This document shows, piece after piece, positions 237 through 2,144 of a stretch of 2,241 nucleotides of DNA. Under the pieces are notes generated by a model, which did not search any database, had not been told where the DNA came from, and saw nothing but the letters and a program-made list of their open reading frames with translations. This stretch comes from Escherichia coli (GTDB lineage: Bacteria; Pseudomonadota; Gammaproteobacteria; Enterobacterales; Enterobacteriaceae). The stretch is from assembly GCF_003334815.1 (NCBI RefSeq), contig NZ_QOWO01000087.1. One strand, 5' to 3'. Made by a program: the position numbers and the translations under genes. Positions within the stretch are counted from its first letter, which is position 1, and the number at the start of each line of letters is the position of its first letter.

Positions 237-764
237 TCAGAATGGCGCATCATCGTCGTAGCCATAAGGAGGTTCTGGCTGTTGTTGAGGCTGAGGCTCT
301 GGCTGCGCGGCCTTACGTCCACGGCCTTTCGTTTTCGCGCCACCTTTTTTCGTCGCGTCAGCACTCTGTGGCTGCCCATTCTGCTGAGGCTTCGGTTGCG
401 CCTGAGCGTTCTGCTGTGGTGCACGTCCCAGCATCTGCACGGTGCCCGTGGTCTTAACAAGAATTTCAGTGACGTAACGGGTGATACCGTTATCTTCCCA
501 GCTACGGGTGCGAAGCTGACCTTCGATGTAGACCTGCGCACCCTTGCGCAGATATTCACCTGCCACTTCCGCGAGCTTGCCGAACAGCACCACGCGGTGC
601 CATTCCGTCTGCTCCCGCATCTCCCCCGTCTGTTTGTCACGCCAGCTTTCTGATGTGGCCACCTGCAGGTTTGCCACTGCGCCCCCGTTGGGGATGTAAC
701 GGACTTCCGGATCATTGCCCAGACGCCCGACGAGGATGACCTTGTTGATACCACGTGCACTCAT
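237..764 (-). CDS. ssb: Single-stranded DNA-binding protein, plasmid-type SSB (175 aa)
   Basis: The translation matches the E. coli SSB OB-fold block nearly residue for residue as I recall it ([81 protein letters not shown]), followed by a Gln/Pro/Gly-rich disordered linker and the acidic C-terminal tip DDDAPF (E. coli: DDDIPF). AGGAGG (complement of 770-775) sits 5 nt upstream of the ATG at 764. Stop TGA is the complement of 237-239. Confidence 0.95.
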
Positions 765-775: not shown

Positions 776-833
776 GACTGAAAGATGTGAGATAAACCGG
801 ATACCGGCGACGGGACGTTCATGTGCCCCTTCA

Positions 834-851
834 GAGGAGCGAAAGCTCCTC
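834..851. other. Hairpin with 7-bp stem and GAAA tetraloop (GAGGAGC-gaaa-GCTCCTC)
   Basis: Perfect complementarity 834-840/845-851 with loop 841-844. On the plus strand the loop is a GNRA-type sequence. Confidence 0.6.
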
Positions 852-856
852 CTGCC

Positions 857-890
857 GTCCACTTCACAGGGGTTTCTCCCCGCAGTGGAC
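857..890. other. Imperfect two-part hairpin (outer stem 857-863/884-890, inner stem GGGG 869-872 / CCCC 878-881, loop tttct)
   Basis: GTCCACT...AGTGGAC outer arms are perfectly complementary (7 bp); the inner GGGG/CCCC stem is separated from it by an internal loop. Confidence 0.5.
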
Positions 891-922
891 CTTTCCGATG
901 GGGGCCCGTTTACCGCCTCACG

Positions 923-934
923 GGACAGCTGTCC
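923..934. repeat. 12-bp perfect palindrome GGACAGCTGTCC (contains CAGCTG)
   Basis: The sequence equals its own reverse complement. A second CAGCTG-centred palindrome, GCAGCTGC, occurs at 1270-1277. Confidence 0.7.
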
Positions 935-939
935 GGGGG

Positions 940-987
940 CGGACGCAAAATTTTTAGCCGGGTTCATGGCTAAAAATTTTGTGGCCG
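940..987. repeat. Perfect 14-bp AT-rich inverted repeat (946-959 / 968-981) with 8-nt spacer, extendable imperfectly to 940-987
   Basis: CAAAATTTTTAGCC-gggttcat-GGCTAAAAATTTTG: every one of 14 positions pairs. Flanking 940-945/982-987 add four Watson-Crick pairs with one G-T and one mismatch. It is the only AT-rich perfect hairpin in an otherwise GC-rich region. Confidence 0.85.
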
Positions 988-1092
988 GTGCATCTCACCC
1001 TGGACAGATGGAACGGGAGGGGGTTACGTCTGCCCCCCGGAAAGTCCACAGCGGGAAACAGGCCGCAGGGGTGGCGGCAGGAGGGAAGACTG

Positions 1093-1134
1093 CTGCGCCA
1101 TCAGGCGCAGTTTCCTCACACACCGTCAGGTGTG
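1093..1134. other. Two adjacent tetraloop hairpins (CTGCGCC-atca-GGCGCAG at 1093-1110; CACACC-gtca-GGTGTG at 1119-1134)
   Basis: Perfect 7-bp and 6-bp stems confirmed by base pairing, separated by 8 nt. Confidence 0.6.
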
Positions 1135-1150
1135 CAGGGAGCGCAGGTCA

Positions 1151-1185
1151 CGGCGCGACAGGGGCGGCGCGACCGGAACGGTCGC
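1151..1185. repeat. Direct repeat CGGCGCGAC x2 (1151-1159, 1165-1173); the second copy overlaps a hairpin GCGACC-ggaac-GGTCGC (1169-1185)
   Basis: Exact 9-bp direct repeat with 5-bp spacer, read directly. The hairpin has a 6-bp perfect stem. Confidence 0.6.
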
Positions 1186-1533: not shown

Positions 1534-1725
1534 TCACCTGTTTCTGCTGCCCTGAAGGATGTAGTGACCGCCGAGGAATACAGCCTGCTGATTCGCCACA
1601 AAATCGCAGATTTCATCAACAATCTGCGCAGTGGTGAGCGGTTTCTGCCCCATTTCACGACGCCGCGCATTAATCACGGCTTTGTAATTGCGCAGAATTT
1701 CGCGGGTTTCTGTGCTGATATTCAT
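1534..1725 (-). CDS. Small hypothetical protein (63 aa, mildly basic), translationally coupled to the upstream 140-aa ORF
   Basis: The ATG (complement of 1723-1725) overlaps the upstream stop TGA (complement of 1722-1724) in an ATGA arrangement. GGGGAG lies 8 nt upstream of the ATG. Composition is ordinary. It may belong to a small leading-region protein family (DUF905-like is a recollection of typical plasmid annotations, unverified). The competing track ORF 1368-1670 is GC-artefact-like. Confidence 0.6.
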   Translation of the reverse strand: MNISTETREILRNYKAVINARRREMGQKPLTTAQIVDEICDFVANQQAVFLGGHYILQGSRNR

Positions 1726-2144
1726 GACATGTGCTCCCCGTCCAGCGCCTGTAACACAACGTCCATTGCTTCGCGTTCTTCCCTGACGAATGCGTCACCG
1801 TCGCCCCCGTTCTCGCTCCCGACGGCATACAGGCGCTTCATTTCACTGCCTGCCAGCGCCATCACTTTTTCCAGCATCACCGCCGGAACTGTCACCTGAC
1901 GGCTGGCGCGCTTTTCTTCCATCAGCTCACGAACAACGTCGTGAACAATGCTGACATCCGCACCATGCTCAAAGGCATCGTCCAGTCGCTGCATGACGGT
2001 TTCCAGCTCATCGTCTGTCAGACTCCAGTCCTGGGCTATGTGACGCACATCCCCACGGGTCAGCACCACGGCAAAAACGCATTCACTGTCCGGCACGTCT
2101 GTGTTCAGCACTTCGCGGATAATTTCTTTAACAGTACAGTACAT
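1722..2144 (-). CDS. Hypothetical strongly acidic protein (140 aa; about 30 Asp+Glu vs 14 Lys+Arg by my count), leading-region gene of unknown function
   Basis: Long clean ORF with AAGGAG (complement of 2153-2158) 8 nt upstream of the ATG at 2144. Same orientation as ssb. Family not recognised with certainty (DUF1380-like is a recollection, unverified). Confidence 0.75.
   Translation of the reverse strand: MYCTVKEIIREVLNTDVPDSECVFAVVLTRGDVRHIAQDWSLTDDELETVMQRLDDAFEHGADVSIVHDVVRELMEEKRASRQVTVPAVMLEKVMALAGSEMKRLYAVGSENGGDGDAFVREEREAMDVVLQALDGEHMS

Follow-up and report, generated by a model that had tools for sequence, protein, structure and literature searches.

The inverted repeat and the hairpin that carries it

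The stretch of DNA analysed here (the window) is 2,241 nucleotides long. It carries the plasmid ssb gene on the minus strand and, to the right, two overlapping open reading frames (ORFs) on the same strand. A GC-rich intergenic region of 769 bp (765–1533) separates ssb from the two right-hand ORFs, and an inverted repeat lies within it. The repeat is the tip of the ssi3/Frpo hairpin promoter of IncI plasmids, which has already been described, and it is not a new element. The features of the window are as follows.

237–764, minus strand: plasmid ssb, first gene after the promoter, with the plus strand as template
831–1161, plus strand: ssi3/Frpo3 repeat unit of 331 nt, identical at 329 of 331 positions to AJ238399.1:11381-11711
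879–1055, plus strand: long imperfect hairpin of the single-stranded DNA (ssDNA) promoter, approximately 177 nt with 66 predicted pairs; the inverted repeat is its tip
940–987, plus strand: extended apical stem-loop, as delimited by the first-pass annotation; the perfect part is 946–981
946–959, plus strand: left arm of the perfect apical stem (CAAAATTTTTAGCC), with A at 956 where ColIb-P9 ssi3 has T
960–967, plus strand: apical loop (GGGTTCAT), variable among homologues in sequence and in length (4 to approximately 20 nt)
968–981, plus strand: right arm of the perfect apical stem (GGCTAAAAATTTTG), including an UP-like match at 972–982
988–997, plus strand: right-arm bulge (GTGCATCTCA), sequence-conserved and predicted to be largely unpaired; it faces a single unpaired left-arm base (939)
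1001–1006, plus strand: putative -35-like hexamer TGGACA, assigned from conservation and published descriptions; 5 of 6 consensus positions, fully paired with 930–935
approximately 1024–1031, plus strand: probable -10 region (TTACGTCT), a weak match to the consensus
1534–1725, minus strand: ORF overlapping the next one
1722–2144, minus strand: ORF for a DUF1380 protein, overlapping the previous one

The left arm is the exact reverse complement of the right arm, giving 14 pairs out of 14 around an 8-nt loop. A repeat finder extended the arms to 20 nt (940–959/968–987) with 90% complementarity, and it also reported the arms as direct repeats. Moving outward from the perfect stem, there is a G·T pair (945·982), a C-G pair (944-983) and an A·G mismatch (943·984), and positions 940–942 pair with 985–987. 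Not one of 300 dinucleotide shuffles of 765–1533 contained a perfect stem of 14 pairs with a loop of 3–12 nt (mode 6, maximum 12), and the longest perfect stem in 300 shuffles of the whole window was 10. The GC content is 33% at the apex, compared with 64% for the intergenic region and 72% and 64% for the adjoining arm segments. The first-pass annotation had described a perfect 14-bp stem with an 8-nt loop, far longer than chance would give and AT-rich within GC-rich DNA; each of these points was borne out. Folded alone as ssDNA, the segment 940–987 has a predicted energy of -18.0 kcal/mol on the plus strand (z = -6.4) and -13.7 kcal/mol on the minus strand.

The plus strand of 765–1140 folds as ssDNA with a predicted energy of -106.2 kcal/mol (z = -8.5). 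The predicted fold of 879–1062 has 66 pairs, running from 879/1055 at the base up to 959/968 next to the loop. Going down the right arm away from the loop, the AT-rich stem (968–981) is followed by an irregular segment (982–987), the bulge (988–997), TGGACA and then the weak -10-like segment. The bulge separates the AT-rich stem from the -35 helix. The -10-like segment lies approximately 18 nt beyond TGGACA, where the stem is unpaired at 906, 910–911, 1025 and 1029–1031. Since both box-like regions lie further down the right arm, the inverted repeat is upstream of the promoter boxes. All promoter-relative positions given here are counted from the -35-like hexamer. A scan of 760–1540 for canonical sigma-70 promoters on both linear strands returned none.

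Several other structures were seen in the intergenic region. A small perfect GC hairpin, GGAGGAGC-GAAA-GCTCCTCC (832–851), lies within the ssi3 repeat unit, with the base of the long hairpin on one side and the ssb ribosome-binding site on the other, and it would fall in the 5′ UTR of the early transcript. An alternative mini-hairpin, GTCCG-GGGG-CGGAC (930–945), is located directly 5′ of the left arm. Followed by the T-rich arm, it was the one terminator-like hit of the scan of 760–1540, on the plus strand, and its formation would compete with that of the -35 helix. For the bulge (988–997) no pairing partner was found. Its complementarity to 787–800 is at chance level (p approximately 0.15 against shuffles) and is not kept in other copies, and this pairing was rejected. 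An Rfam search of the window gave only two sub-threshold, snoRNA-like chance matches; therefore no RNA family accounts for the region. The right half of the intergenic region (1133–1533) is a separate conserved module, matched at 96–97% by many IncF and Klebsiella plasmids that have no megablast match to the hairpin. Its plus strand has more structure than shuffles (z = -4.9), and it holds inverted repeats at 1273–1291/1300–1318 and 1443–1465/1504–1526. The RefSeq annotation places a hypothetical ORF of 104 aa on the minus strand at 1148–1462.

Identity with ssi3 of ColIb-P9

Reference Frpo/ssi sequences, including that of ColIb-P9 Frpo3, were taken from Samuel et al. 2024, Supplementary Table 2 (PMC11541004). 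A profile of published Frpo/ssi sequences matched the window with E = 6.5e-48. The ColIb-P9 ssi3 occupies the same place upstream of ssb on the same strand and forms the same hairpin as the window element, and over 831–1161 the two differ at 956 and 1069 only. Position 956 is A in the window and T in ColIb-P9 and R64. The stem is perfect here because A956 turns the T·T mismatch of ColIb-P9 into an A-T pair, with a predicted gain in stability of approximately 2.5 kcal/mol. Exact matches over 925–1005 in plasmid records number 645 for the window (A) allele and 1,034 for the T allele, the latter including ColIb-P9 and R64. Both alleles are common; whether the stem is perfect is therefore a matter of polymorphism, and perfection is not required. 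The ssi3 (Frpo3) of the IncI1 plasmid ColIb-P9, upstream of ssb, was reportedly described by Bates and co-workers in 1999 and by Nasim and co-workers in 2004. The element was published in 1999 and has been studied repeatedly since. The feature is real, functional-looking and already known.

The intergenic region was matched by more than 5,000 plasmid records. The top match is the region upstream of ssb in an IncI-gamma/K1 conjugative plasmid, in which ssb is followed by DUF905, psiB, psiA and ardA, all on the strand opposite to the hairpin. This layout, with the hairpin upstream of leading-region genes on the opposite strand, is repeated in 12 other plasmid loci. That the plus strand is the one transferred follows from established knowledge and from how the genes are ordered with respect to nikA/oriT. 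The window element has several of the features that mark a class 1 ssDNA promoter: homology to the Frpo/ssi references (the identity and profile match given above), a leading-region position on the template strand of establishment genes, and a long, stable, imperfect hairpin that has been kept in evolution, as judged from the folding energy and from the covariation described below. As for boxes in the stem, TGGACA is fully paired and conserved as TGGAC/TTGGA, and the weak -10 match lies in a mismatched segment.

The ssDNA promoter activity and the zygotic induction of ssb that we refer to come from the literature. PMC9849209 and PMC7690428, in summarising Masai & Arai 1997, describe the Frpo of the F plasmid as a stem-loop that, as ssDNA, rebuilds -35 and -10 boxes and recruits E. 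coli RNA polymerase; the RNA it yields can also serve as a primer for DNA synthesis. Transcription from ssDNA has been reported in vitro for F Frpo and in vivo for F Frpo1/2, and deletion of F Frpo2 led to loss of early Ssb production in transconjugants (PMC9849209). PMC12672017 presents ssi1-3 of ColIb-P9/pESBL as homologous to Frpo and as class 1 ssDNA promoters, the strongest class, and gives start sites for pESBL ssi1-3 mapped by 5′ RACE. The ssi3 is the head of the ssb operon (PMC10104558). Inactivity in double-stranded DNA (dsDNA) has been put down simply to loss of the hairpin (PMC9849209; PMC12672017). In pESBL and F there are also ssDNA promoters of class 2 and class 3 (PMC12672017; 10.64898/2026.01.09.698686). 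The earlier suggestion that the repeat belongs to a stem-loop promoter on ssDNA controlling early ssb had the biology right, and the promoter in question is the published ssi3/Frpo. The minus-strand origin of f1/M13 and the ssoA of rolling-circle plasmids are further hairpins that serve host RNA polymerase as promoters or primer sites on ssDNA. These, the class 2 and class 3 hairpins and Frpo/ssi all work as folded ssDNA that imitates a duplex promoter, and all lose activity in dsDNA, but none of the others has sequence similarity to Frpo/ssi.

Comparison across homologues

The profile built from published Frpo/ssi sequences identified 35 copies in 14 sequences, namely 13 loci and the window. 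The fetched plasmids came from Escherichia, Raoultella, Klebsiella, Enterobacter, Leclercia, Hafnia, Erwinia and Serratia. All 35 copies lie on the strand opposite the leading-region genes. We aligned 24 distinct upper hairpins and scored them on the window structure, with 500 shuffles and slid alignments as controls. No shuffle (0/500) reached the observed covariation on any of five measures, and all slid controls were lower. In the -35-box helix, 11 of 12 pairs show double changes among the 24 homologues. Cells that are not Watson-Crick are more often G·T (50) than A·C (21), as expected if the plus strand is the folding strand.

Each plasmid has 2–4 ssi/Frpo copies, arranged as direct repeats at kilobase spacing; one locus (L124) has four. 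In a 24.7-kb locus (L001), copies were located at 3182–3372 and 12112–12303, and the exact half-site AAAAWTTTT occurs within the ssi2 and ssi3 copies only. In E. fergusonii pEF45-3 (L122; 15017–17738), an ssi2-type copy has a group II intron (ltrA) behind it, and the leading region lacks ssb, psiB and psiA; this suggests a rearrangement between repeated ssi copies. Another locus (L123) has a hybrid copy, in which an ssi1-type apex is joined to different flanks. A pattern scan of genome contigs with TGTCCGGGG...CCCTGGAC was too permissive. In the fetched loci it found one real homologue (L086), and the others were chance matches in GC-rich genomes.

The Frpo (ssiD/Frpo1) and Frpo2 of the F plasmid, reportedly characterised by Masai and Arai in 1997 and by Couturier and co-workers in 2023, share with the window the long hairpin, the AT-rich apical stem, the conserved bulge, TGGAC(A/T) and the mismatched -10, and Frpo2 is also upstream of ssb. 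F-type copies match the upper hairpin only (912–1007 of the window), at approximately 77–78% identity in a distant-mode search. Next to the loop, Frpo2-type copies have TACC/GGTA, whereas the window has AGCC/GGCT, a difference of two compensated pairs. F Frpo1, unlike the window, has a mismatch or bulge within the AT-rich stem. In other copies the bulge corresponding to 988–997 is 9–10 nt long and reads G(T/C)GCATTTCAC or GTTCATTTCAC (also given as GTGCATTTCAC).

The upper hairpin has 11 invariant columns in the 24 homologues, and ten of them lie within 946–981. The tract pairs, four A:T and five T:A, almost never vary, and they therefore give no covariation signal, yet they are under strong sequence constraint. 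The pairs adjoining the loop do covary: one is GC in 19 copies and AU in 2, another is CG in 18 and UG in 2, and a further one is CG in 12 and GC in 4. The centre of the apex (columns 29/57 of alignment A1; 951/976 in the window) is unpaired in 16 of the 24 distinct homologues, across several genera. These unpaired centres are mostly G·G, and the change is compensated to G-C in one copy only. Most of the copies concerned have both arms as AAAA(A)GTTTT(T) when read 5′ to 3′ (AAAAAGTTTTT). Arms identical in this direction, with G opposite G at the centre, form a direct repeat in duplex DNA and not a true palindrome. The first-pass annotation had proposed conservation of both arms with compensatory changes as a check. 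The arms are kept in nearly all homologues, and there is covariation on the loop side, but non-compensated mismatches are frequent (the 1,034 T·T records and the 16 unpaired centres).

It had also thought of an operator bound by a dimeric regulator. The allele in the window has symmetric arms, and in the 24.7-kb locus the half-site is confined to ssi copies; judged from the unpaired centres, the homologues argue against an operator. No cognate regulator for a palindromic operator was identified. In one Frpo candidate, from an insect metagenome, a short GC hairpin stands in for the AT module, which is missing altogether; the module is therefore dispensable for the fold.

The role of the AT-rich apex

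After transfer, the plus strand, which is the template for ssb, would fold into the hairpin of approximately 177 nt. The right arm of the hairpin would act as the non-template strand and the left arm as the template. Host RNA polymerase would start near the hairpin base and transcribe leftwards into ssb. Because ssb is read from the plus strand, the polymerase would move away from the loop and out via the hairpin base into the gene. Synthesis of the complementary strand would then remove the hairpin and switch the promoter off. The AT-rich stem would most likely serve in two ways, as an UP-element-like contact surface for the C-terminal domains of the RNA polymerase alpha subunits (alpha-CTD) and as a contiguous helix that nucleates folding in register.

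The distal subsite of UP elements has the consensus AAAWWTWTTTT, reportedly derived by Estrem and co-workers in 1998. The segment 972–982 (AAAAATTTTGT) on the plus strand, which would be the non-template strand, is the only match in the window with one mismatch. With up to two mismatches, the window has 10 matches, compared with 1.1 expected by chance, and eight of them are within the two arms. Upstream of the -35-like hexamer, the right arm runs from an A-tract into a T-tract, as does the UP element of sigma-70 promoters such as rrnB P1. In rrnB P1 the distal UP subsite occupies 11–21 bp upstream of the -35 hexamer. Among the copies that allowed a measurement, the right-arm A-tract starts 29–32 nt before the -35-like TGGAC/TTGGA. 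The distance from the T-tract to the hexamer is 19–24 nt on the right arm and 11–13 nt on the left arm, and the sequence-conserved bulge of the right arm accounts for this difference. Measured along the right arm, the A/T tract lies 21–29 nt upstream of the hexamer, approximately 8 bp beyond the canonical UP position. Measured through the helix, with the bulge (988–997) assumed to be extrahelical, it lies 12–20 bp upstream. The apex thus differs from a sigma-70 UP element in that its duplex forms intramolecularly through the hairpin, in that the linear distance is approximately 8 nt too long unless the bulge loops out, and in that its centre is mismatched in most homologues.

The Frpo structures in Samuel et al. 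(PMC11541004) are annotated with -10, -35 and UP elements. In the accessible literature this figure annotation is the sole mention of an UP element for Frpo, and we found there no experiment on the apex and no published test of alpha-CTD binding or stimulation for the Frpo/ssi apex.

On the whole, we favour with moderate confidence a reading in which ssi3/Frpo3, a class 1 ssDNA promoter, has the inverted repeat as its apical stem-loop, and the AT-rich stem of this repeat is most likely both UP-like and a folding nucleus. The apex would then be the upstream, UP-like end of the promoter duplex and at the same time a cap for folding. We infer this role from the tract sequences and their spacing, with the assumed geometry of the bulge and a putative -35 as the points of reference. 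The conserved G·G centre is not predicted by the UP-element model. A bolder form of the model, which we put forward tentatively, is that the apex might be an intramolecular UP element in which an extrahelical bulge of 9–10 nt sets the through-helix distance and the central purine·purine mismatch is itself selected. Such selection may act, for example, on flexibility, or against a perfect palindrome in the duplex plasmid.

A different account of the apex makes it a purely structural cap, whose helix would nucleate folding, set its register and exclude SSB, and whose base composition would have no recognition role. We consider this less likely. The apical helix is the longest uninterrupted helix of the hairpin in every copy folded, the pairs adjoining the loop covary while the loop itself is free in sequence and length, and the insect-metagenome candidate puts a short GC hairpin in the same place. 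Selection on stability alone, however, should allow the tracts to drift, as the -35 helix has done, and should favour G:C pairs. In fact, no columns of the upper hairpin vary less than the A/T tracts, 16 of 24 copies keep a central mismatch that destabilises the stem, and the spacing to the -35-like element is fixed. We consider it unlikely that the constraint acts on the duplex, in which two AAAA(A)NTTTT quasi-palindromes approximately 26 bp apart might bind H-NS, Fis, IHF or a plasmid regulator, for example in silencing. The apex is an AT island within 64% GC DNA, and in the 24.7-kb locus its half-site is found inside ssi copies only; the arms are also direct repeats, so conservation of both could reflect recognition of the duplex. 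On the other hand, no regulator of such a site is known, loss of the hairpin alone is how the literature accounts for inactivity in dsDNA (PMC9849209; PMC12672017), and the loop-side covariation together with the excess of G·T over A·C points to selection on the folded single strand.

The first-pass annotation had suggested for the repeat a promoter core or melting element, with the TAAAAAT of the right arm as a -10-like string and, as a speculation, a likeness of the weak base of the stem (940–945/982–987) to a partly unpaired -10. In the published structures, the UP element is placed upstream of the -35, and the apex is the sole AT-rich stretch in the Frpo/ssi reference sequences. The boxes (1001–1006 and approximately 1024–1031) sit further down the right arm, downstream of the tract, where the TGGAC is conserved and paired, and the mismatched -10 region is near 906–911/1025–1031 and not at the base of the apical stem. 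AT-rich DNA melts easily, and initiation at the loop could be imagined from either arm. On the right arm, however, TAAAAAT and the loop are only three pairs apart, too little for a -35 to fit, and T971 is C, A or G in most homologues (GCAAAAAG). On the left arm, GGGACA (922–927) and CAAAAT (946–951) each match the consensus at 4 of 6 positions, with an 18-nt spacer, but GGGACA is not conserved and the critical T951 is G in most homologues, and this candidate was rejected on conservation. With no canonical sigma-70 site on either strand in the scan of 760–1540, a core at the apex is very improbable. A chance palindrome or an intrinsic terminator has in its favour the presence of a stem-loop alone and can hardly be maintained: no shuffle reached 14 bp, and the repeat is conserved in plasmids of Escherichia, Salmonella, Klebsiella, Enterobacter, Leclercia, Erwinia, Serratia and Hafnia. 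A terminator would have a GC-rich stem and a T/U run. The stem here is 33% GC, and this candidate was rejected because no T run follows the stem on either strand.

Frpo/ssi promoters drive the first genes of an incoming plasmid, which include ssb, psiB, anti-restriction genes and other anti-defence genes, and this makes them relevant to how resistance plasmids spread. Finding the repeat amounts to finding the tip of ssi3 again and is no new discovery. Points of modest scope that lend themselves to experiment in this established system are the probable UP-like role of the apex, and the central mismatch and bulge that homologues have conserved. The conserved A/T tracts, the fixed distance to the -35-like element, and the conserved central mismatch and bulge suggest a recognition role that is probably UP-like. 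Such a role could account for the superior strength of class 1 among ssDNA promoters. If the intramolecular UP element were real, class 1 ssDNA promoters would be three-part (UP, -35 and -10) mimics of strong sigma-70 promoters.
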